DNA of 24,094 nucleotides, from positions 1-24,094 of IMG/VR virus record IMGVR_UViG_3300023184_000512; one strand, 5' to 3'. Of the stretch, positions 1 through 19,914 are shown in pieces. A program made the position numbers and the translations under genes. This DNA comes from a virus (Duplodnaviria > Caudoviricetes). Under the pieces are notes generated by a model. It searched no databases. It was not told the origin of the DNA and saw only the letters and a program-made list of their open reading frames with translations. How positions within the stretch are numbered: position 1 is the stretch's first letter; every line of letters starts with the position of its first letter.

Positions 1-540
1 AATGAAGCCTTTATAGAGCAGATTGATTACCGTGCAACAGCAAAGCGAATTAAAAATGTTGTTGGTCTTCATCCCAAGTGGGCAGATGCCGTAGTTAAGT
101 TCGAGCAGCGCGAGTACACACGTCTAGTTAAGCAAGGCTTGAAAGAGGGAGCAGCCCGTATCAAGGCTCAGTCCAATGCTGCTACTTATTCTGACCGCTT
201 GCGTAGCGCTCGCGCTTCAATGATTGCTCGCACTGAAATTAACATTGCTCAAAACGAAGGCAGAATGCAGGGATGGAATCAGGCATTCGAGCAAGGATTT
301 ATTGACCCTGCATCACTTAAGATGTGGATGACTGCTAAAGATGAGCGCACCTGCGATGTTTGTGGTCCAATGGATGGCGAGATAGTTCCATGGAATGGCT
401 TATTCTCAACAGGCGATAAAGTCCCTGGGCGAGTTCATCCACACTGCCGTTGCTCAATGGTCATGCTGCCACCCAATGGTAAAGGTCAATCTTTCAAAGA
501 AAACTATGACCTACTCAATGAATTTATTGGGTGGGATTAA
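1..540 (+). CDS. MuF/gpF-like phage minor head (head morphogenesis) protein, 5'-truncated by window
   Basis: Frame 1 is open from base 1 to TAA at 538-540, so the ORF-track start at 139 is internal. Contains Phage_Mu_F signatures: RASMIARTE, W-x-T-x-x-DERTCDVCGPMDGE, HPHCRC. Confidence 0.9.
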   Translation, partial: NEAFIEQIDYRATAKRIKNVVGLHPKWADAVVKFEQREYTRLVKQGLKEGAARIKAQSNAATYSDRLRSARASMIARTEINIAQNEGRMQGWNQAFEQGFIDPASLKMWMTAKDERTCDVCGPMDGEIVPWNGLFSTGDKVPGRVHPHCRCSMVMLPPNGKGQSFKENYDLLNEFIGWD

Positions 541-1697
541 TGACATACGCAATTAAATTTCCAGTCGGATACAAGCCTGTAATCAAGCACGGTGAGCATG
601 ACCAGTCTTCTCACGGAAACTGGGCTGGGGATAGTGTTTCATTTAAGCAAGATAAGCATTTGCTGACAATGCAGGATAAAAGTGGAAAAACTTTGGCTTC
701 AATAGATTATGTTAATTTGGGATTTAACAAACTTGATATCAATTCAATAGATTCTTTTGATGAAGGCAAAGGTTATGCGACTAAAGTATTAGAAAAACTT
801 TATTCTTCATTTCCTGAGCATAGTATTTTTTGGGGCAAAACAATTGTTCCAGCGTCAACTCATTTGGCTGAAAAGTTTGCATCTAAGTATGGTCGAACAA
901 CTTATATCCCTTGGGGTGAAGGCGCTATTAATGGAAAAGAAATGGGCAAACTTTACGGGCAAGAGGAACCTGTAACAAAGCACGAAGGCGGAGGACACGA
1001 CCAGAAAACTCACGGTTCTTGGGCTACAGGTCAAAAGGGTGGAAGCGGGCTAAGCCATCGAGAGATGTTTGAGTTGAAAAGAAATCGCCAAGACCCTATG
1101 GTGAGAAAAGTTTATGAGGCTGAAGAAAAAAATCATAATCAGATTCAAGATAAAAATGCAGATATGCCATCTGCGCCAAATCGTGCGGACTTCACTGAAT
1201 ACTCTGATTACAACGATGCCTACAAAAAGTATTCGAAAGATTTTCTGAATTGGTCAAGGAAAGTCACTACTTCAGTTATATCCGATATTGGAAAAAAACA
1301 TTTAGACGGAACACCTAGAGGTGTTAATGGATATATCAGAGATGTGCTAAGACAAGATTGGTTTGTCGAGCAATTTGGAAAAGGTGGCGTTGCTGGAAAT
1401 AATCTTGAGGTTAAAGTCACTTCTGCTGGTGAGGCTGGGGCGTATCAAATTGGATTCAAGGGCGACCTGCCCGTAAGTATTTTGAGAGTAAATAGAGGCT
1501 ATTCCAAAGCCGAGCCTACTATCGTCCATGAGATTGCTCATTACGCTACAACGATTAGCGCGACTGCACCGCATGATGGACACGGGGTAGAGTTCGTGCG
1601 AAATCACATATTTATTTCTAGCAAAGTATTGGGACAAAGTTTTGCAGACCAACTTGAAGCAACATACAGAGAGGCAGGTATACCTCTTGGAGACTAA
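540..1697 (+). CDS. Two-module tagged effector: GNAT-like acetyltransferase + HExxH (SprT-like/zincin) metallopeptidase
   Basis: ATG at 540 overlaps the MuF stop (TAATG) and is preferred to GTG 531. Tag copies at 585 and 978. Module 1 has IDSFDEGKGYATKVL (GNAT acetyl-CoA motif A-like). Module 2 has IVHEIAHY...HDGHGVEF (HExxH plus downstream HG-x-x-F). Confidence 0.75.
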   Translation: MTYAIKFPVGYKPVIKHGEHDQSSHGNWAGDSVSFKQDKHLLTMQDKSGKTLASIDYVNLGFNKLDINSIDSFDEGKGYATKVLEKLYSSFPEHSIFWGKTIVPASTHLAEKFASKYGRTTYIPWGEGAINGKEMGKLYGQEEPVTKHEGGGHDQKTHGSWATGQKGGSGLSHREMFELKRNRQDPMVRKVYEAEEKNHNQIQDKNADMPSAPNRADFTEYSDYNDAYKKYSKDFLNWSRKVTTSVISDIGKKHLDGTPRGVNGYIRDVLRQDWFVEQFGKGGVAGNNLEVKVTSAGEAGAYQIGFKGDLPVSILRVNRGYSKAEPTIVHEIAHYATTISATAPHDGHGVEFVRNHIFISSKVLGQSFADQLEATYREAGIPLGD

Positions 1698-2478
1698 ATT
1701 TTACGGCTGGGAGATTGTTGACCCAATTCATCCTGATTTGATTCCTGAACCTCAAGTTGAAGAAGTTTTGAAGCATGGCTCCCACGACCAAAAGACTCAT
1801 GGCAACTGGGCTTTAAGTGAGAACTATCCAGATTTATTAACACTTGGAACATTTGATGAAGAATTTGAATACGATTCAGCGTTAATGACTTACAGCGAGC
1901 GCTATGGGGTGGACAAAGATGGCAAAATTGTTGGAGTTGAGACATTTGAGCATGATGCTATAGATAGTTATTCTCAAGAGGGGTATAAAAATATAAACGC
2001 GTTTCTTCGCAACCCAAGAGGTTTTGAAGGTTCTTATGAAATAAAATTTCTTCAAGAAAAGGTTGATGGGTTAGATTCTTTGATTGATAAGGCTCCAAAT
2101 ATGTTCGGAGATAAAACTTTATTTCGAGTCGTAGATAATTTTGTTTTAGCGCAGTTAGCCCCAGGCGACACTCTCAGAGATAAAGGTTATTTATCAACTA
2201 CACGAATAGATTTGACCAAAGATACGGATACTCGGGATGCGCTTGGCGAAATATATGACACACCTGATACGGTTGCTGTCATTCTTCCAAGCCCAACCAA
2301 AAGCGGTAAAGGAATTGCCGTAGACCTTTATCGAACCTCCGTCAATGATACGAGTTCGGTATCAGATAGAGAAAAGGAAGTTCTATTACCTCGCCAAACG
2401 GATTTGCTGTTTTTGGGATATAAAAGAGGTATAGGCTCTGAGGATAAGGTCGCAGTCTTTCAAAGGGTGGACAAATGA
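1687..2478 (+). CDS. Tagged ADP-ribosyltransferase (VIP2/Alt-like, R-S-ExE type)
   Basis: YSQEGYKNINAFLR helix, LFRV, GYLSTT, REKEVLLPR. Start placed at TTG 1687 (AGGT about 7 nt upstream) rather than 1642; start is uncertain. Tag copy at 1771. Confidence 0.85.
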   Translation: METKFYGWEIVDPIHPDLIPEPQVEEVLKHGSHDQKTHGNWALSENYPDLLTLGTFDEEFEYDSALMTYSERYGVDKDGKIVGVETFEHDAIDSYSQEGYKNINAFLRNPRGFEGSYEIKFLQEKVDGLDSLIDKAPNMFGDKTLFRVVDNFVLAQLAPGDTLRDKGYLSTTRIDLTKDTDTRDALGEIYDTPDTVAVILPSPTKSGKGIAVDLYRTSVNDTSSVSDREKEVLLPRQTDLLFLGYKRGIGSEDKVAVFQRVDK

Positions 2479-5400
2479 ATAAATTTAAGACCATTCTTGA
2501 AGATGTTGAAATTATTGTAGGTGTTAAAAAGCACGGTTCTCACAACCAAAAAACTCACGGCAACTGGGCAACAGGTGGCGAAATTGCTCACTGGAATCCT
2601 AATGACCCAGTTCCTGCATCTCCTCGTAACGCTGGAGGAATGACAGATAAGATATGGGAAAATTGGGAACATGGCGTAGATGGTGAGCAATACGTTGAGT
2701 TGTATCGCCAATATGCAGCAGAGGCTCTTGGACTTAAGGTTCCTGAAAGCGACATGGCTCCTGGGGGTTCTCTTAATTATTTAACCCAACGTGGATTCGG
2801 TGGCTCATCTACTCAAACCGCAAAGGGTCATGCTCTTGCAATATTAAAGGCTATTGCCAATGGCTCTCCAACTCAACCAGCCCTTTATCGCGGTGTAACA
2901 GAGTTAAAGAATGACCCAAATTCAACAGCGCTTGTACAACAACTTTCTAGTCTTAAGGCTGGCGATACGCTTGACATGCCACTTGTATCAACCACTCGTT
3001 CCCTTGGCGTCGCTGCTTGGTATGCAGCGGATAGAGTTCAATCAGGTTCATCCCCAATAATTATGAAAATTCAGGCTGGTGCTAAGGGTGTATCAATTGC
3101 ACCCGAAAAAAGTTATTACCAAGCAGACCATGAAGTTATTACAAGCGGAAAGTTTGAAGTTGTTTCAGTAAATCAGGTCAAGACACCATACTGGAAACGT
3201 GGAATTTTTGAACCTCGCAAAACAGTTTATACTGATGGAAGCGGTACAAGTTATGAAGTAGCGACATATTCACCTAAGAGATATACAAGTGCTGAGGCTA
3301 AAAACATTTGGAATACAGTTAGCGCTGGAAAGTTGCAATCTTTAGCCACATCAAAATTCAAACTTACTGATGATAGAAGCAAGAATCCAAACCGTACAGT
3401 TTATTCAAGTTGGGATTTGCAAGCACCAACTGAGTTCACTATCGTGGAGGTTAAGATGATTGAACCTCATGTAGTCCAAAAGTCAATTGACCATGGAATG
3501 AAGTTCGATTCATTATTTGCTGGACGTCCACAATATGATGCAGCACCGCTCGAGAAGCACGGAAACCATGACCAATCCAGTCACGGCAACTGGGCTACTG
3601 GTGAATTATCCGAGGAACAAAAATCTGTTGTATCAGCATGGACTTCGTTAAGCAATAAAACTTCTTGGAGAGAGATTGCAAATGATTTGTCCGAAGGTAA
3701 AACTCCAAATGCTTCAGAAGATGACATTAAAACAGTTAAAACCCTTGTTGATGCAATTAAACAAAATGGAGTTATTCCAGCCGAGGCTCTTGGTCGTGCT
3801 GAATTATTAACTACTGGATTGCGCTGGCAAGGTGCTTTACCTAAAGTCGGAGATACATTAAAAAATGAATTGAGTTCAGCAACTCTTGATGAAAGAACAT
3901 CTGAAAGATTCTCGCAGTATTCAGATTTTGGTGGTTCTAAAGGGAAGCCAGTTATTTTCCATTATGGTTTCCAAACTAAAGGATTAGATGTTAATAGGGC
4001 TGGAGCAGATAATTTTGCCGATGAACAAGAATGGCTTGTATCAGGTACATTCAAAATTACTGAAAGATATTCAGAAAATGGAATTACGCACATAAATCTA
4101 AAACTTGTTGATGAGGTTAAAAAGCACGGCTCTCACGACCAAAAAACCCACGGTAGTTGGGCTAATGGTGGCAGTGGAAAAACAGTTACTGGTCTTATCA
4201 ATAAACTCAGCGAAAAGAGAAGCCCCGGATTCTCTATTGATTTGCGAACTGGGGCATCCCCAAAAGATGGTTTTATAGCCTCAGATATGGGTGCCGAGGA
4301 AGCGATGCCTTGGAAAGAGGCTAGTAAGACTCGAGATAATCTTCGCAATGTAATGGTAAATTACATGGATAAACACGCTGAGTTGCTAGATGGCTCAGGA
4401 GCATTCTTTGGCGGTTGGGTTGACGAGGGAACACTCTTTTTGGATGTTTCGCGTAGATATCCAACGCGTTCTGAAGGCGTAGCAGCAGGTTTTGCTAATC
4501 AGCAAAAAGCAATATACGATGTCGTGAACGATTCGTATATCTATATGAAGGATGAGGTAGATGGAAGAACCAACAAAGCCCGTAATGATAGAAGTACCGA
4601 AGGCAATCAAGGATATGACCAAGGAAGAGAAACTAGCCTTCGCGGACAAAATAATCGACGCAATGACGGGCAACCGTTAACTTTTCCTCATGTTTGCTTA
4701 GGCAGATATCAAGTTCAAAAGCATTTAGAGGGACAGCATGACCAAGGAACTCACGGCAACTGGGCAGGGGATAGATACCCTACTGATTCAGTTAAAAGCG
4801 CAAGAGACGGCGCTAAAGAATATGCCTTTAAGAAAGGCTTAGAGCCTGACGAGACAATTGATTACACAAAGGTTGTAGCAAACCGTGAACGCGCATCAAA
4901 GATAGCCGATGTCTACGAGGACCTACCTAAGATGGATAGGGACGCAGTAGATGAGTACGAGGCATTAGCCTCAGAAGTAGAACAGCAGTTCGATTTCATG
5001 ACCAAGAATCTTGGAGTAAAAGTTTCCTTTGTTGCTGAAGACCCGTACAAGACTTCTAAAGAGATGTTTGATGATGTAAGCAAGGGAAACCTAAAGGTCT
5101 TATCAACTGCATCAACAGGTGCTCATCCGCTATTTAGTAATGAGCAGAATGACAAGTTTAGAGCAGTTCATGATTACTTTGGACATGCTGCAACTGGGCG
5201 TGGATTCGGTCAAGATGGCGAAGAGGCTGCGTGGGTTCATCACTCACAAATGTTTACAATGGATGCTCGCGCAGCATTGACTACTGAGACCCGTGGGCAA
5301 AACTCTTTCTTCAATAATCGTGGCAAGCAGTTCGCTGACCAAAAGGTTGCATTGTTGCCTTCTGAGTTTTGGGAAGTTCCAGCAGTATTTACAAAATTTA

Positions 5401-6695
5401 GAGCAATTCGTTTTGCGTTTGGACTAAAGCCTATCTTCAAGCACAGTGGTGGAGAAGCACATGCAGGTGGCGATGACCAATCTTCTCACGGCAACTGGGC
5501 GCGTGGAATCTCTGCTGAAGATGAAGCACTTATTAACGAGATGGAGAATTTAGGTCCATCGCTCCAAGATTTAGAAAATGCTCTGACACCTGCCGAACAA
5601 CCTGACTATACCGACTTAAAAGATTATGTTAATAACGATGCGGGTATGTACGAGGCAGCCATTGAAGGAATTGACGAAAGAGTTGCCGAGCGACTTAAAA
5701 ATTTACAAGAAGAATTTCCTAACCATGAATACACAGAGCAAGAAAAAACAACCATTTATGAAGATATGCAAAATGAAATGATTCAAGAATATATTGATAA
5801 TGATGACGGCACCATTGCTCAATTATGGCAAGAACAAAACGGTGAAGAATTTAACCCTGAAGATTTACATACCTTCTTTGATGATGTTTATGCCATGGAT
5901 TATGATGTTAAAAATGCTCAGGGTGAGGTTGCCACCACTCTTAGTTCATCAACAAATAACATTTATCTTGATGGTCAGAGGCTGGTTGTAACTGGTGAAA
6001 TCACGGATGATGCTGGTAACTATGCTGGAGAGTTCCAACGCGGCTTCTTCAAAAGCCAAGACAAACAAGGCAATGAGATTTGGGCTGTAGAGCATGACCT
6101 ATTCAAAATGGAAGATGAATATGCTGGAGTTGGATTCGGCTCCAAATTTATAGCCCGACAAGAGGCTTGGTATGTAGCGGTAGGCATTGGCAGAATTGAT
6201 GTAGGCACAGCATGGGATGGCGCTCGCCATTGGGCTAAGTCAGGTTTTGACTTTGATGAAAGAAATATGCGTGAAAATGTAAGTCAGTTGATAGGTGGGA
6301 GAATAAATAATTCTGCTGATTTTGGTGAGGGTTCAACAAATCGTCTTGAGTTTGATTCTTTAATGTCAAAAATGGTTACTGATTACACCCCAATTTTTAG
6401 GGTATTTACCTCATTCAAACCAATTACCTCGGAGGATTTTCCTATCCCGAATGATTTCTTGATGATTGGCTATAAAGATAGAGTTCAAATAGACACTAAT
6501 CGCATTACGGGAAAACCCGTATATTCGTGGGCTGGGGCAAGATTGCTTAATAACCTGACCATGAAGTATCAAAAAGGCTTGACCAAAGAAGGACGCACTA
6601 TCCAGCAAGGTCCAATTGACCGAGATGGCGATGGTTTGGTCTATGACGGCACCCCTCGCGAAAAGCCCGCTCCTACGGTAAACTCATCACCATGA
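2475..6695 (+). CDS. 1406-aa polyvalent effector polyprotein: ART-like, ART-like, unknown domain, HDxxGH zincin-like domain, acidic helical + GNAT-like domain, C-terminal DxDxDG motif
   Basis: ATGA overlap with the upstream gene. Tag copies at 2529, 3555, 4122, 4719 and 5439 split it into five modules. Motifs: LYRGV/VSTT/DHEVI; LSSAT/DEQEWLV; GGW...LDVS...NQQKAIYD; FRAVHDYFGH...GEE; YAGVGFGSKF...GARHWAKSGFDF; DRDGDGLVYDGT. Confidence 0.85.
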   Translation: MNKFKTILEDVEIIVGVKKHGSHNQKTHGNWATGGEIAHWNPNDPVPASPRNAGGMTDKIWENWEHGVDGEQYVELYRQYAAEALGLKVPESDMAPGGSLNYLTQRGFGGSSTQTAKGHALAILKAIANGSPTQPALYRGVTELKNDPNSTALVQQLSSLKAGDTLDMPLVSTTRSLGVAAWYAADRVQSGSSPIIMKIQAGAKGVSIAPEKSYYQADHEVITSGKFEVVSVNQVKTPYWKRGIFEPRKTVYTDGSGTSYEVATYSPKRYTSAEAKNIWNTVSAGKLQSLATSKFKLTDDRSKNPNRTVYSSWDLQAPTEFTIVEVKMIEPHVVQKSIDHGMKFDSLFAGRPQYDAAPLEKHGNHDQSSHGNWATGELSEEQKSVVSAWTSLSNKTSWREIANDLSEGKTPNASEDDIKTVKTLVDAIKQNGVIPAEALGRAELLTTGLRWQGALPKVGDTLKNELSSATLDERTSERFSQYSDFGGSKGKPVIFHYGFQTKGLDVNRAGADNFADEQEWLVSGTFKITERYSENGITHINLKLVDEVKKHGSHDQKTHGSWANGGSGKTVTGLINKLSEKRSPGFSIDLRTGASPKDGFIASDMGAEEAMPWKEASKTRDNLRNVMVNYMDKHAELLDGSGAFFGGWVDEGTLFLDVSRRYPTRSEGVAAGFANQQKAIYDVVNDSYIYMKDEVDGRTNKARNDRSTEGNQGYDQGRETSLRGQNNRRNDGQPLTFPHVCLGRYQVQKHLEGQHDQGTHGNWAGDRYPTDSVKSARDGAKEYAFKKGLEPDETIDYTKVVANRERASKIADVYEDLPKMDRDAVDEYEALASEVEQQFDFMTKNLGVKVSFVAEDPYKTSKEMFDDVSKGNLKVLSTASTGAHPLFSNEQNDKFRAVHDYFGHAATGRGFGQDGEEAAWVHHSQMFTMDARAALTTETRGQNSFFNNRGKQFADQKVALLPSEFWEVPAVFTKFRAIRFAFGLKPIFKHSGGEAHAGGDDQSSHGNWARGISAEDEALINEMENLGPSLQDLENALTPAEQPDYTDLKDYVNNDAGMYEAAIEGIDERVAERLKNLQEEFPNHEYTEQEKTTIYEDMQNEMIQEYIDNDDGTIAQLWQEQNGEEFNPEDLHTFFDDVYAMDYDVKNAQGEVATTLSSSTNNIYLDGQRLVVTGEITDDAGNYAGEFQRGFFKSQDKQGNEIWAVEHDLFKMEDEYAGVGFGSKFIARQEAWYVAVGIGRIDVGTAWDGARHWAKSGFDFDERNMRENVSQLIGGRINNSADFGEGSTNRLEFDSLMSKMVTDYTPIFRVFTSFKPITSEDFPIPNDFLMIGYKDRVQIDTNRITGKPVYSWAGARLLNNLTMKYQKGLTKEGRTIQQGPIDRDGDGLVYDGTPREKPAPTVNSSP
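4561..4680 (+). CDS. Nested out-of-frame 39-aa ORF inside the polyprotein (MEEPTKPVMIEVPKAIKDMTKEEKLAFADKIIDAMTGNR), candidate immunity peptide
   Basis: +1 frame relative to 2475..6695. AAGGA 8 nt before the ATG. Protein-like amphipathic sequence, while the host frame reads as an R/G/N/Q-rich linker over the same interval. Confidence 0.65.
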   Translation: MEEPTKPVMIEVPKAIKDMTKEEKLAFADKIIDAMTGNR

Positions 6696-6838
6696 ACAGA
6701 CAAGAGAGATTAGACGCCTTATCAAAACTCCATGCCTCCATGCCTGTTGAGATGGAAGGCTTACCCGACGATAATGAGGTGGCTTTCTTGGACAAAGTAG
6801 TAGAGCAAAAACTAACTTTGGTTGAAAAGACTAAATAA
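6692..6838 (+). CDS. 48-aa hypothetical protein (MNRQERLDALSKLHASMPVEMEGLPDDNEVAFLDKVVEQKLTLVEKTK), candidate immunity protein
   Basis: ATGA overlap with the polyprotein stop. Fills the gap before 6870. Not in the supplied ORF track. Confidence 0.65.
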   Translation: MNRQERLDALSKLHASMPVEMEGLPDDNEVAFLDKVVEQKLTLVEKTK

Positions 6839-6857
6839 CAGTTGAAATTCTATCCGC

Positions 6858-6863
6858 TATCCT
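6858..6863 (+). promoter_or_regulatory. Possible -10 element for leaderless expression of ORF 6870
   Basis: TATCCT (TAnnnT) 6 nt before the ATG; no SD and no well-spaced -35. Confidence 0.3.
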
Positions 6864-6869
6864 TTACAC

Positions 6870-9077
6870 ATGGCGGATATTGCATCTAAACTAATTAATC
6901 TGAGCGCAGAGAAACTTCTCACGCTCCATGAGAACCTTCACAAATCTATGGCTCCTACGGCTGCCGAGATTGAGGTACACCACACGGTCCTCAACGAGAT
7001 GGCTCGTCGCAAGATGTCTCGCCCTCAAGACTCATGGGATGAGTTCGAAATCCTTGTAGATTCAATTAAAGATGTTGACCTGACCTCTCTCGCCTCCTCG
7101 TTACCTGAAGGAATGGTTGAAGATGTAATTAAGACAACTGGGAGTCCAATTGGAAATGTCGATACCTATCTAACAATTGATGGCTATGAAATGCGTATCG
7201 AGCCAGTTGAATTTGACCCTATGGAAAAGATGATTCGTGAAGAGGGTGGAAAGTACACAGTTTACGATTCAACTGGAAAGCGAAAGTTTGGTACATACAG
7301 TTCAGAGAAAGAGGCTCAAGACCGCCTTGACCAAATTCACCGATTCTCAAAGGCAGATAACACTCCTCCTAAATCAGTTCGAGATGCAGCGCGTCGCGCC
7401 CTAGATTGGATTGCTGATGGAAAGGCTGGCAGTGGATTCACAGCAGTTGGAAAGCACCGCGCTTCGCAATTAGCAGCGGGAGAATCAGTATCTATTGAAA
7501 CTTTGAAGAGAATGAAATCATTCTTCTCTCGTCATGAAGTTGATAAGAATGCTCTTGGATTTACTCAAGGCGAAAAAGGTTATCCATCCGCTGGTCGAGT
7601 TGCTTGGGATGCTTGGGGCGGAGACGCAGGATTTGCATGGGCTGAGTCCATGGTTGCTCGCGCCGAAAAAGAAGAAGTTGTAAAACATAATCCTGGGCAA
7701 CACGACCAAAAAACTCACGGTAAATGGGCTGATGGAATTGCTGAAGCAATTTTGGCAGGTGGTCACCCTGAAGTAGAACCTGAGAATCTATCTGCTTTCT
7801 TGATGAAAGCATCAAAGCGAACAGACCATCCTGATTTAACGGAGTTAAGCATCAAGGGAACATTGCTATATGGCGATGAAGGAATGGGAATTGCTCGTAA
7901 AGATATGCCTCAAATTCCTGGAAAAGAACGCGCTCGCTTCTTATCTGAGATTGAAGCCAAATTAGGTGTTACGGCTGAGAAAGAAAAGATTGACCCAACC
8001 ACTCTCAAGCCAGTTCAGAAAGAAATTTCTGCTTCTCGTTCAGGTGCTATCTATAATAAATTCCGCGAAGATGGCAAGATTCCAAAAGATGAACGAATTC
8101 TTATTTCCAAAGATGGTTACGTTATTGATGGACACCATACATGGGGCGCTGCTGTTGCATTTGCATTTGATAATCCTGGAACTGAGTTGCCTGTCTATCG
8201 TCTTTCAGTAACAGCAAAAGAGGCACTAGATATTTCACTAGACTGGTCAACAAAGAATGGTTTTGAAGGTCAAGCAATTGATGCACCCGCTAAGAAAGCA
8301 CTTATTTGGAAACATGAAGGTGGCGGGCATGACCAAAAGAAACATGGTGCATGGGCTGCTGGTTCTTCGGCGTATGCAGATGATGTTGCTCCAACAAAAG
8401 AGCGCTCAGCAAAGGCTGTTTCACTTGCGAGCGCTATCCGTGACCGCTCAGTTAAAATTGAACCACAGGTCACAGAGTTAGTAAATACTTTTGCTAAAAA
8501 CGCTGATGGAAAACTCATGGGATTAAGCCAACGCCTAAAGTCAACAGATTCACTTGCTCGAAAGATTGATGCAGATGCTGCAAAGGAGCATGAAGGAAAT
8601 CACGAGAAGGCTGCTGAAGGAGTATCAGATGCAATTCGTTACACCATCAAAGTTTCTGATGCAAACTATGCAGATGGATTAGATGCAACAGTAAAGGGTC
8701 TTGAAGCAACTGGCTGGAAAGTCCGCACCAAAAACTTTTGGACGGCTGGAGACCCATATGATGGGGTCAATATCAAGGCTGTGAAGAATGGCGTAGCAAT
8801 TGAGATTCAGTTGCACACACCAAAATCACTTGAAGTAAAAGAAGGAAAACTTCATAGGGTTTATGAGAAGTACCGTGTGTCTACAGACAATCAATACCGT
8901 ATCGCCCGATGGGATGAGATGGTTGTAATGGCTAAGCAAATTCCTCGCCCCGATAACATGCCAAAAGTTTTAGGAATCGGCTCCCTTGAGGTTCAGCGCT
9001 TTGAAACTGCTGAAGAGGCAGGATTGACTAAATCAACCCCAGTTGATATACTCCAAAACGAGAGAGGAGGAGAATAA
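6870..9077 (+). CDS. 735-aa multi-module head-associated polyprotein: helical N-terminus, two small conserved-looking head modules, tagged ParB/Srx-like domain, tagged RelA/SpoT-like (alarmone synthetase-like) domain
   Basis: Tags at 7683 and 8310. ParB-like: LKPVQKEI...ILISKDGYVIDGHHTW. RelA/SpoT-like: RLKSTDSLARKI, DAIRYT, KNFW...YDGVN, EIQLHT, HRVYEKYR. Confidence 0.85.
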   Translation: MADIASKLINLSAEKLLTLHENLHKSMAPTAAEIEVHHTVLNEMARRKMSRPQDSWDEFEILVDSIKDVDLTSLASSLPEGMVEDVIKTTGSPIGNVDTYLTIDGYEMRIEPVEFDPMEKMIREEGGKYTVYDSTGKRKFGTYSSEKEAQDRLDQIHRFSKADNTPPKSVRDAARRALDWIADGKAGSGFTAVGKHRASQLAAGESVSIETLKRMKSFFSRHEVDKNALGFTQGEKGYPSAGRVAWDAWGGDAGFAWAESMVARAEKEEVVKHNPGQHDQKTHGKWADGIAEAILAGGHPEVEPENLSAFLMKASKRTDHPDLTELSIKGTLLYGDEGMGIARKDMPQIPGKERARFLSEIEAKLGVTAEKEKIDPTTLKPVQKEISASRSGAIYNKFREDGKIPKDERILISKDGYVIDGHHTWGAAVAFAFDNPGTELPVYRLSVTAKEALDISLDWSTKNGFEGQAIDAPAKKALIWKHEGGGHDQKKHGAWAAGSSAYADDVAPTKERSAKAVSLASAIRDRSVKIEPQVTELVNTFAKNADGKLMGLSQRLKSTDSLARKIDADAAKEHEGNHEKAAEGVSDAIRYTIKVSDANYADGLDATVKGLEATGWKVRTKNFWTAGDPYDGVNIKAVKNGVAIEIQLHTPKSLEVKEGKLHRVYEKYRVSTDNQYRIARWDEMVVMAKQIPRPDNMPKVLGIGSLEVQRFETAEEAGLTKSTPVDILQNERGGE
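9024..9052 (+). promoter_or_regulatory. Near-consensus sigma70/sigmaA promoter inside the 3' end of the RelA/SpoT-like gene
   Basis: TTGACT (9024-9029), 17 nt, TATACT (9047-9052), with an extended TG at 9044-9045. Lies upstream of the GAGGAGG SD of ORF 9080. Confidence 0.7.
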
Positions 9078-9079
9078 AT

Positions 9080-10075
9080 ATGCGTTACTTTGTAAAGACT
9101 GATATCAATTTTCAGCCTGTGGTGCTCTATCGCTTCAATCTTGACGTACCCGATAGCATTTCAGAAGAGATATGGAAACCGATTGCTAATACTTGGGAAC
9201 CATCGGAAAGAATCGTTGAAGTTCTAACTCAAGGCTCAGCAGATTTTGACGAAGTAAGCGAAGAGTTGGCTCGCAAAACCTTCCCTGATGCTTTCTCGGA
9301 AGTGGCTAAATCAATCGGAGAGTACGAAGTATCCAAGGCTGAAGGCGACAAGCGTTACACGCTAGGAGCCATGTATATCCCCGACCGCTTAGATGCTCAT
9401 GGCGAATGGACAGATGCCGAAGAGTTGCAAAAAGCGGTTTGGGATTATGTTCGAACAGATGACCGTCGAATCCGACTTCAGCACAACCGCGATATCGTGG
9501 CTGGAGAATGGGTCGAGGTTATGGCTTTCCCATATGAGTTGACCGTGCCAATTAGCACCCCATCAGGAATTGAAGTAAACCATACCTACCCGCCAAACAC
9601 TGTTTTTCTTGGAGTTGTTTGGGAACCTTGGGCATGGGAAAAGATTCAAAACGGTGAAATTCTTGGTTATTCTATTGGTGGTCGTGCTGAGCGTTTATAC
9701 GTTGATATGGAAAAGGCAGATGGACCAACAGTTTCTGATGTCCATGTTGATACAGTAATGAATCAACCAAAGAAAAAGAAAAAGGTCATCCAAGATGAGG
9801 AAGTCCTAGTAGAAAAAGAAAAGCCAATCGATATTAAGGCTTTAACTGATTCAATTATTGAAACTATTAAAAAGGACATGCCCGCTCCAGTTGAGCCAGT
9901 AATCATAGAAAAGTCACCTACAATTGACATTGAAGCAATGATGATTAAACTTGCGGAAATAATGTCCGCTAATCAACCTGTCATCAATGTTGTAATGCCT
10001 GAAGAAAAACCTAAAAATCGAAAAATTGAACGGGATGAATTCGGCAATATTTCAAGAATTATTGAGGAAGAATAA
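9080..10075 (+). CDS. XkdF-like putative serine prohead protease with an extra ~75-aa N-terminal immunity-like domain and an acidic C-terminal tail
   Basis: Strong SD GAGGAGG. Protease core from ~9338: [39 protein letters not shown] (Peptidase_S78_2/XkdF pattern). Confidence 0.8.
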
Positions 10076-18936: not shown

Positions 18937-19914
18937 ATGCCACAGCCAAATATCAATAGCGTCCACATTGACGCAATTCTTACAAACATTTCTGTTGCTT
19001 ACCTTCAGAATCAAGATAACTTCATTGCCGACAAGGTATTCCCAGTAATCCCTGTCGATAAGAAGTCAAATAAGTATTTCACTTATGACAAGAACGACTG
19101 GTTCCGTGACGAGGCTCAACGCCGTGCTCCGGGAACAGAGTCTGCTGGTGGTGGATATTCTCTATCATCTGCAACATACTCAGCAGATGTTTTTGCTTTC
19201 CACAAAGATGTCGATGACCAAACAATTGCTAACGCAGATACACCTTTGAACCCTCTTCGTGAGGCAACAGAGTTCGTAACTCGTCGTCTAATGCTCCGTC
19301 GTGAACTTCAGTTCGTAAATGATTTCTTCACAACAAGCGTATGGGGAACAGACATCACAGGTGTTGCTGGAACTCCAACAACAGGTCAGGTCAAGCAATG
19401 GTCAGATTACACAGCATCAGACCCAATCAATGACATCGAAAACGGAAAGTCAGGCATCCTATCTACAACAGGTATGGAAGCAAACACTCTCGTTCTCGGA
19501 TACGACGTATTCAAGGCTCTAAAGAATCACCCTGACCTTGTAGACCGTATCAAGTACACATCTTCACAGACAATTACAACAGATATGCTCGCTGCTATGT
19601 TCGATGTACCGCGTGTTATCGTTGCTAAGGCTGTTAAGGCAACAAACAATGAAGGCGCAACAGGTGCATATAGTTTTGCATTTGGTAAGTCAGCACTTCT
19701 TTGCCACGTTGCTCCAAACCCAGGACTACTTACACCTTCAGCGGGTTACACATTCGCATGGACAGGTGTTTCAGGTGGACTTAACGCAACTATCGGTACT
19801 TCACAGTTCCGTATGGAGTCAATCAAGTCAGACCGCATTGAAGCGGAAATGGCATTTGATAATAAGGTAGTAGCCAATGACCTTGGTTATTTCTGGACAT
19901 CAATCGTCGCTTAA
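18937..19914 (+). CDS. Major capsid protein
   Basis: 325 aa, AAGGAG SD, visibly biased codon usage. HIDAILTNISVAY...FIADKVFPVIPV...RAPG N-terminus typical of gpE-like capsid proteins. Followed by a terminator. Confidence 0.88.
   Translation: MPQPNINSVHIDAILTNISVAYLQNQDNFIADKVFPVIPVDKKSNKYFTYDKNDWFRDEAQRRAPGTESAGGGYSLSSATYSADVFAFHKDVDDQTIANADTPLNPLREATEFVTRRLMLRRELQFVNDFFTTSVWGTDITGVAGTPTTGQVKQWSDYTASDPINDIENGKSGILSTTGMEANTLVLGYDVFKALKNHPDLVDRIKYTSSQTITTDMLAAMFDVPRVIVAKAVKATNNEGATGAYSFAFGKSALLCHVAPNPGLLTPSAGYTFAWTGVSGGLNATIGTSQFRMESIKSDRIEAEMAFDNKVVANDLGYFWTSIVA

Follow-up and report, generated by a model that had tools for sequence, protein, structure and literature searches.

A 39-residue gene nested out of frame in a phage cargo polyprotein may encode an inhibitor of the domain that precedes it

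The forward strand of the window, by which we mean the whole stretch of 24,094 nucleotides of phage DNA that was analysed, carries a hidden gene at positions 4561–4680, in the +1 frame relative to the open reading frame (ORF) 2475–6695. That this hidden ORF is a real gene we regard as almost certain. The reading that we prefer, with a probability of roughly 0.57, is that its 39-residue product binds domain 6, the cargo domain encoded immediately upstream, and is likely the cognate inhibitor of a capsid-cargo effector, nested out of frame.

The window contains a phage head region, in which a MuF-like gene, an XkdF-type protease gene and the gene for the major head protein (18937–19914) were recognised by Pfam or PHROG matches. 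The MuF-like head morphogenesis gene (1–540, forward strand; PF04233, E 3.5e-14) is cut by the start of the window and is separate from the cargo genes; the prohead protease (9080–10075, forward strand; PF14550, E 4.4e-13) has an N-terminal leader of about 75 residues. Between these two genes stand four ORFs with ten copies of a repeated tag (540–9077). The ORF that hosts the hidden gene (2475–6695, forward strand) encodes a polyprotein of 1406 residues with five tagged modules; like polyvalent or capsid-cargo proteins, it joins several effector-like domains in a single chain encoded next to virion genes. Domain 6 sits behind the sixth copy of the tag (4122–4163, forward strand), a Lys followed by H..HDQxxHGxWA. 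Tag 7 (4719–4766, forward strand; Lys codon from 4719, His from 4722) leads into domain 7 (4767–5400, forward strand), a module made by way of the linker, which matches the N-terminal part of PHROG 3170, for which no function is known, and carries a conserved His-Asp-x-x-Gly-His motif. The tag probably acts as a cleavage and capsid-targeting signal, and the XkdF-type protease would be the enzyme that cuts the cargo proteins.

The order of the cargo modules is shuffled among relatives, with 22 clusters of preceding domains in 50 loci. Some 199 mycobacteriophage records contain a gene about 47% identical to domain 7, and there it precedes a domain-6 relative within one protein, so that the two domains recur together in reversed order. 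In sequencing run X2 the tag-6 DNA has another copy, at about 2517–2573, that is identical to 4116–4172; in run X1 this other copy has 9 differing letters, which hints at conversion or recombination among the tags. The DNA of the window is present in lake and freshwater metagenome runs, one of which may be its source, and identical letters were found over 4465–5000 and 4554–4873 in contigs of two other studies. No RNA dataset was listed among the runs with this DNA, a result that has no bearing on expression. An actinobacterial host is suggested because whiB, described as a marker of actinobacterial phages (PMC6802176), is present in 3 of 5 related complete virus records; the phages would then be freshwater actinophages. 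A scan of genome collections for a prophage or host gave a sole match (L172), which was spurious.

Translation of 4561–4680 in the +1 frame gives the 39-residue peptide of the original prediction, and the main frame over the same bases reads as Arg-, Gly-, Asp- and Asn-rich text with an off-frame look, as had been described. The ATG lies one base past the last codon of domain 6, in agreement with the claim that the hidden ORF starts at the end of the domain. The AAGGA that had been reported 8 nt upstream of the start is found at 4548–4552 and is followed by GAGGT at 4554–4558; together they form a candidate ribosome-binding site (4548–4558, forward strand) within the last codons of domain 6. 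This stretch is purine-rich in all 32 distinct complete ORFs. The site is of moderate strength, with a duplex energy of −6.6 kcal/mol that is equalled or bettered at 32 of the 269 ATGs in 1–10000; the value for the major head gene is −7.4. The distance of 39 nt given for the stop and the next tag fits if it is counted to the Lys codon at 4719. The hexamers TTGCTA-17-TACGAT (4492–4520, forward strand) are likewise present, with 8 of 12 consensus matches, but the reading of them as a promoter does not hold above chance level: the promoter scan does not list the site, and its count of 24 sites in the region compares with 20.0 ± 4.6 for shuffled sequences. The hexamers form no part of the mechanism proposed below.

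The main-frame linker (4560–4721, forward strand) is unconstrained over the hidden gene except for the avoidance of stops, and is conserved again past 4680, up to the Lys before tag 7. There is no in-frame ATG, GTG or TTG in 4560–4724 of the main frame, and tag 7 is therefore reachable only through main-frame read-through. Just before tag 7, the main-frame stretch 4687–4721 has a Cys-containing motif that nearly all close relatives keep; in 17 of 32 sequences the hidden ORF runs on across this stretch. The hidden peptide, which is predicted to form a strand at residues 8–12 and an amphipathic helix at about residues 20–36, had no match in Pfam or PHROG and no usable match in the Atlas.

Frame-specific selection, which had been suggested as a check, is purifying on the +1 frame and not on the main frame. 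The ratio pN/pS is 0.40 in the +1 frame (codon bootstrap 0.26–0.57) against 1.66 (1.08–3.17) in the main frame and 1.17 in the third, computed over 37 codons of 32 distinct sequences from pooled pairwise counts without a tree, the sequences being related and the counts not independent. A more distant subfamily and giant proteins that carry the domain give 0.47 against 1.52 (19 cores), and the main frame of domain 6 itself has a pN/pS of 0.21. Codon position 1 of the main frame is at least as variable as position 3 in only 3 of 194 thirty-codon windows across 540–10072, all of them on 4545–4724; the next highest ratio of position 1 to position 3 is 0.98, and ordinary codon variation is back after 4680. 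A third-position T that would give a main-frame stop occurs in none of 272 cells (0 of 15 columns), compared with 98 of 384 cells (11 of 24 columns; Fisher p 0.002) in the rest of the ORF and 131 of 324 for the domain-6 control, with the caveat that T is also scarcer at the non-risk sites (26%) than in the genes of the window (46–49%), so that the test is not fully clean. This variation shows two frames to be maintained over 4561–4680: the +1 frame carries the protein information, and the main frame need only remain without stops for modules 7 and 8 to be made.

The peptide gene is the constrained layer and the linker the read-through; on the simplest reading, this linker came to lie over a small gene that is older. 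The original prediction had described a gene overprinted on the linker, and here its direction has to be reversed: the constrained frame is +1 and the linker would be the later layer. The accompanying idea that a pair was absorbed into the polyprotein fits a constrained +1 layer under a read-through linker. The proposed ancestral state, with domain and peptide each encoded by a free gene, did not turn up among the cultured-phage loci or the loci with a free-standing domain. The nearest case is L108, where at about 1548–1700 the main frame stops within the peptide ORF and the next tagged gene apparently starts inside it, in the third frame.

The peptide accompanies domain 6 closely in the relatives of the window. 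Three viral scans gave 50 distinct contigs, one of which (L067) is distant and two of which (L064 and L066) end before the junction. All of the remaining 47 have a +1 ORF with an ATG at the end of domain 6, and in none of them does the +1 frame show the stops or the missing start that had been named as grounds for rejecting the prediction. A scripted census counts 46 of 48 with the window included; the two that its pattern missed (L022 and L065) are visible on inspection. In the 32 distinct complete close loci the hidden ORF is 39 or 49 residues long, and none of them has a main-frame stop before the next tag. All 22 loci recovered with the peptide alignment lie on contigs where the peptide follows domain 6. 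The +1 ORF of L067 resembles the peptide by eye and received no score as a relative.

Beyond the close relatives, distant loci were sampled through five single queries. In a second subfamily, whose domains are about 30% identical, all 28 loci have a homologous +1 peptide while the downstream modules vary; 16 of these peptides had been in the profile and so match by construction. Here GGAGG lies inside the codons of the closing TGGTG motif of the domain, and the main frame is open in 27 of the 28. A complete out-of-frame ORF with both frames open is accordingly the arrangement in 32/32 close loci and 27/28 of the second subfamily. In a forward test with two giant proteins, picked by their linker pattern and lying outside the profile, both loci (L169 and L170) have the +1 peptide, at 37.6 and 40.0 bits among 981 segments. 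In these three groups peptide homologues follow domain-6 homologues, which had been suggested as a check (47/47, 28/28 and 2/2), and the peptide follows the domain-6 family whichever module is next. A linker signature like that of the window was seen in 22 of 62 relatives with a long enough tail, by a crude pattern and with close homologues included.

Elsewhere the domain occurs without this peptide. It is missing beside the domain in 9 of 9 cultured-phage loci, which include three T7-like internal virion proteins and a mycobacteriophage head-region gene, and in 25 of 25 loci of free-standing versions of the domain, tagged or untagged. In seven further loci (L162–L168, three of them distinct) a different +1 ORF, unmatched by the peptide profile, stands at the same place, with a pN/pS of 0.15 against 2.56 in the main frame (three sequences only). 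This ORF lies under the linker of a polyprotein of roughly 2,200 residues and looks unrelated to the 39-residue peptide. A partner wherever the domain occurs, as in toxin-immunity pairs, is hence not what we find (0/9 and 0/25, and another +1 ORF in 7 loci); given its absence from these 9 and 25 loci, pairing with the peptide is not obligatory for the domain, which may not be toxic. We think overt toxicity of domain 6 to the host possible and on balance doubtful. Twelve in-frame C-terminal tails, chosen by eye, were considered as homologues of the peptide and rejected, with a best score of 2.4 bits against a shuffle maximum of 3.6 and a profile-profile score of 12.7 against a null maximum of 12.8. 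A profile of the in-frame tails did not single out the ORFs of L162–L168 among 22,826 segments.

Domain 6 (4176–4559, forward strand) is an alpha/beta module of 128 residues with near-invariant G18, G32, G79, W81, D90, S92 and Q110. It belongs to an uncharacterised phage family of 2,550 clusters at 50% identity, as counted by profile search. It matches PHROG 3170 and 17808, neither with a known function, and falls in unnamed Atlas clusters; 22 viral models match it at E 0.001, all of them unnamed or named after other domains. Pfam gave no match for the domain of the window and weak, unrelated matches for 2 of 106 family members. Modelled alone, the domain has a pLDDT of 80 and a pTM of 0.64. 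This model had no PDB match at E 0.001 (best Z 4.1), and a sequence search of solved structures returned nothing with one alignment (A1) and only E values above 1 with another (A4). The lack of a fold match does not prove a new fold. SAM lyase, a first guess, found no support: a single weak match had TM 0.23 and E 0.23, and there was none in the PDB searches.

Relatives of domain 6 occur in proteins of up to 4,243 residues, in annotated internal virion proteins of three cyanophages, in a Rhodococcus phage gene near a structural gene, and together with domain 7 in a mycobacteriophage protein; others are small free-standing genes. These contexts would fit a role as virion cargo, and neither they nor the Pfam and structure searches yielded an activity that could be assigned to the domain. 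Many of the relatives carry other short N-terminal repeat motifs, and in other phages different repeated motifs stand before members of this domain family.

Modelling of the complex, also suggested as a check, predicts that the peptide binds domain 6. The model score is 0.67 (runs 0.67, 0.66 and 0.77), against 0.01 for the best of three controls; a score of 0.67 is reached by 116 of 157 solved complexes and by 2 of 215 mismatched pairs, counts that are rough where own alignments were used. The runs share at least 80% of their contacts, with a partner pLDDT of at least 78 and an interface of 102–104 contacts. In the model, peptide residues 8–12 pair antiparallel with the domain strand 76–80, and residues 24–32 pack on the helix 56–65. 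The interface touches W81 and S92 of the conserved patch; D90 and Q110 are outside the list of confident interface residues. Structure searches found no similar solved structure for either chain. The hydrophobic positions 9, 10, 16, 19, 27, 31, 32 and 35 of the peptide are kept in at least 97% of 34 sequences from both subfamilies. From the model we consider binding of the peptide to domain 6 very probable, and inhibition of the domain by the peptide, with less assurance, probable.

What the bound peptide does is the point at which the best surviving alternative departs. The peptide might bind domain 6 as a structural subunit, a chaperone or an aid to packaging or ejection, adding a strand and a helix and staying with the domain. 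Strand addition with so large a predicted interface would suit such a role, as would the absence of D90 and Q110 from the confident contacts and the ordered in-frame tail of one relative (P0137), whose helix is modelled with confidence (pLDDT 85–95) and whose expected strand is unpaired. Yet domain 6 is modelled by itself at a pLDDT of 80 and occurs in many phages with neither peptide nor tail, and several of the in-frame tails are preceded by Lys-Ala, which by eye resembles the Lys-His junction before the tags, where cleavage would take place. We therefore rate a subunit or chaperone as unlikely beside an inhibitor.

Less likely still is that the gene is real and has another partner, such as the next module, the protease or a scaffold, or that its translation regulates the flow of ribosomes on the polyprotein mRNA. 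Domain 7 is always next in the subfamily of the window, at all distinct complete loci, and binding to domain 6 comes from a model. Against this, the peptide stays although the next module differs in the second subfamily and in the giant proteins, the conservation of its hydrophobic positions points to a folded interface rather than to mere translation, and the complex passes against its controls. That the ORF is an unexpressed chance by-product of a low-complexity linker, as its shortness, its moderate ribosome-binding site and the lack of Pfam, PHROG or Atlas matches might suggest, appears largely refuted by frame-specific selection and is scarcely credible, given that three groups of loci show a synonymous bias in the frame of the ORF, that no other such window occurs among the 194, and that peptide homologues are recognisable beside domains only about 30% identical.

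For the peptide as an inhibitor we propose the following course of events. On the late head-gene mRNA, some ribosomes would read the ORF of 1406 residues and others would start at 4561. The peptide strand is predicted to join the strand 76–80 of the domain, with the helix packed on helix 56–65, and the bound peptide would keep domain 6 silent in the producing cell. The repeated tags would load the polyprotein into the prohead, and the XkdF-type protease would cut after the Lys before each tag. The untagged peptide would be left behind or lost, and domain 6 would become active in the next host. A tightly binding peptide could be co-packaged, needing another release step. As to its history, a domain gene with a small downstream partner gene may have been joined to the next module by loss of the stop codon of the domain, and this loss would have buried the partner gene.

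We put forward a wider reading only tentatively: tailed phages with polyprotein cargo would encode the antidotes of internal effectors in the +1 frame, concealed beneath disordered linkers rich in Arg, Gly and Asp, and would do so in three or more lineages of polyprotein with two types of peptide. Domain 6 would represent a family of new fold (2,550 clusters), whose members are effectors that the phage injects and that are switched on in head maturation by separation from the untagged peptide.

Several known systems resemble parts of this arrangement. The internal proteins of T4 carry a capsid-targeting sequence that is cut by the prohead protease. As there, a short N-terminal signal stands on varied cargo and the protease is in the head module; unlike there, the signal is repeated within polyproteins, and its function would be as proposed above. 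In polyvalent proteins, many effector-like domains are combined in one polypeptide next to virion genes, and packaging followed by injection has been proposed for them (Iyer et al. 2017, PMC5512222). The presence of domain-6 relatives in giant proteins and in annotated internal virion proteins is similar, whereas the description of polyvalent proteins that was consulted mentions no repeated tags, no cognate inhibitors of internal domains and no nested frames; the supplements of that survey might list domain 6 under another name.

MuF toxin-immunity pairs come closest in organisation. A small ORF is reported to follow 89.4% of 191 muf toxin genes (Jamet et al. 2017, PMC5576092), and IapK is described as a downstream inhibitor of the MuF-linked small alarmone synthetase Apk2 that acts by direct binding (PMC12226406). 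As described for those pairs, the location is the head module and an effector-like domain is followed at once by a small ORF, here of fewer than 150 residues and directly after the domain in 47 of 47 close contigs. The small protein is also predicted to bind the domain directly, as in type II-like toxin-immunity pairs, and the cargo cluster of the window ends in a small alarmone synthetase, recalling Apk2 and IapK. The differences are that domain 6 is not fused to MuF, the MuF ORF stopping at 540, and is an internal module of a tagged polyprotein, with no toxin family among the matches described above, and that its partner gene is wholly nested in another frame. By analogy, domain 6 and the peptide may work like a MuF toxin-immunity pair while standing outside that class, with no MuF fusion and an internal domain.

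Genes within genes whose products interact have been described for lambda Rz/Rz1 and for Synechocystis slr0489, slr1079 and slr1082 (bioRxiv 10.64898/2025.12.20.695498). For slr0489, both frames are reported to be translated, the products to interact, and the long product alone to retard growth (same preprint). These cases share a complete out-of-frame ORF inside a host gene; in the accounts given of them both frames are meaningful and the partner is a membrane protein, whereas here the host frame, whose pN/pS exceeds 1, is filler, and the partner, a module of a phage polyprotein, is soluble. In the literature covered, with few subscription papers and no supplements, we found no description of the domain, the peptide, the tag or the arrangement.

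Other modules of the cluster may also have small partners. The leader before each tag tracks the preceding domain (50 loci, 302 tags): a leader score of at least 35 was found for 81% of 433 pairs that share only the preceding domain and for 0% of 1,729 that share only the next, a count that includes trivial same-ORF rows. This co-segregation is also explained by recombination at the tags alone. Leaders at about 1688–1773, 2475–2531 and 9080–9300 begin new ORFs directly after SprT-like, ADP-ribosyltransferase-like and alarmone-synthetase modules, respectively, and are fused to the next protein; they are candidates for immunity peptides that the protease would remove. The last cargo module (about 8360–8970) is a small alarmone synthetase (PDB 8vx3, E 1e-17), 33–37% identical to the C-termini of Streptococcus phage MuF proteins, and the leader on the protease is weakly like a small ORF at the same position in phage K13 (4.7 bits; 9 of 1,000 shuffles). 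An unlisted ORF of 48 residues (6692–6838), with homologues conserved in relatives, follows the last module of the polyprotein and may encode a partner for it.

The ADP-ribosyltransferases of these freshwater phages were earlier read as anti-predator toxins, in the account that we cite for whiB (PMC6802176). Their position in a cargo cluster with a cognate trailer peptide for each module, if that is what the leaders are, would fit action inside bacteria. More generally, the locus shows how a gene pair may outlast being fused into a polyprotein, with the small partner retaining its frame beneath a newly written linker. Such nested genes escape gene callers, and inhibitors of phage-delivered effectors would thus be undercounted. 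If the wider reading above is true, Arg/Gly/Asp-rich linkers in giant phage proteins mark unannotated inhibitors. The predicted partner of domain 6 gives direct access to a large family of phage domains whose function is unknown.
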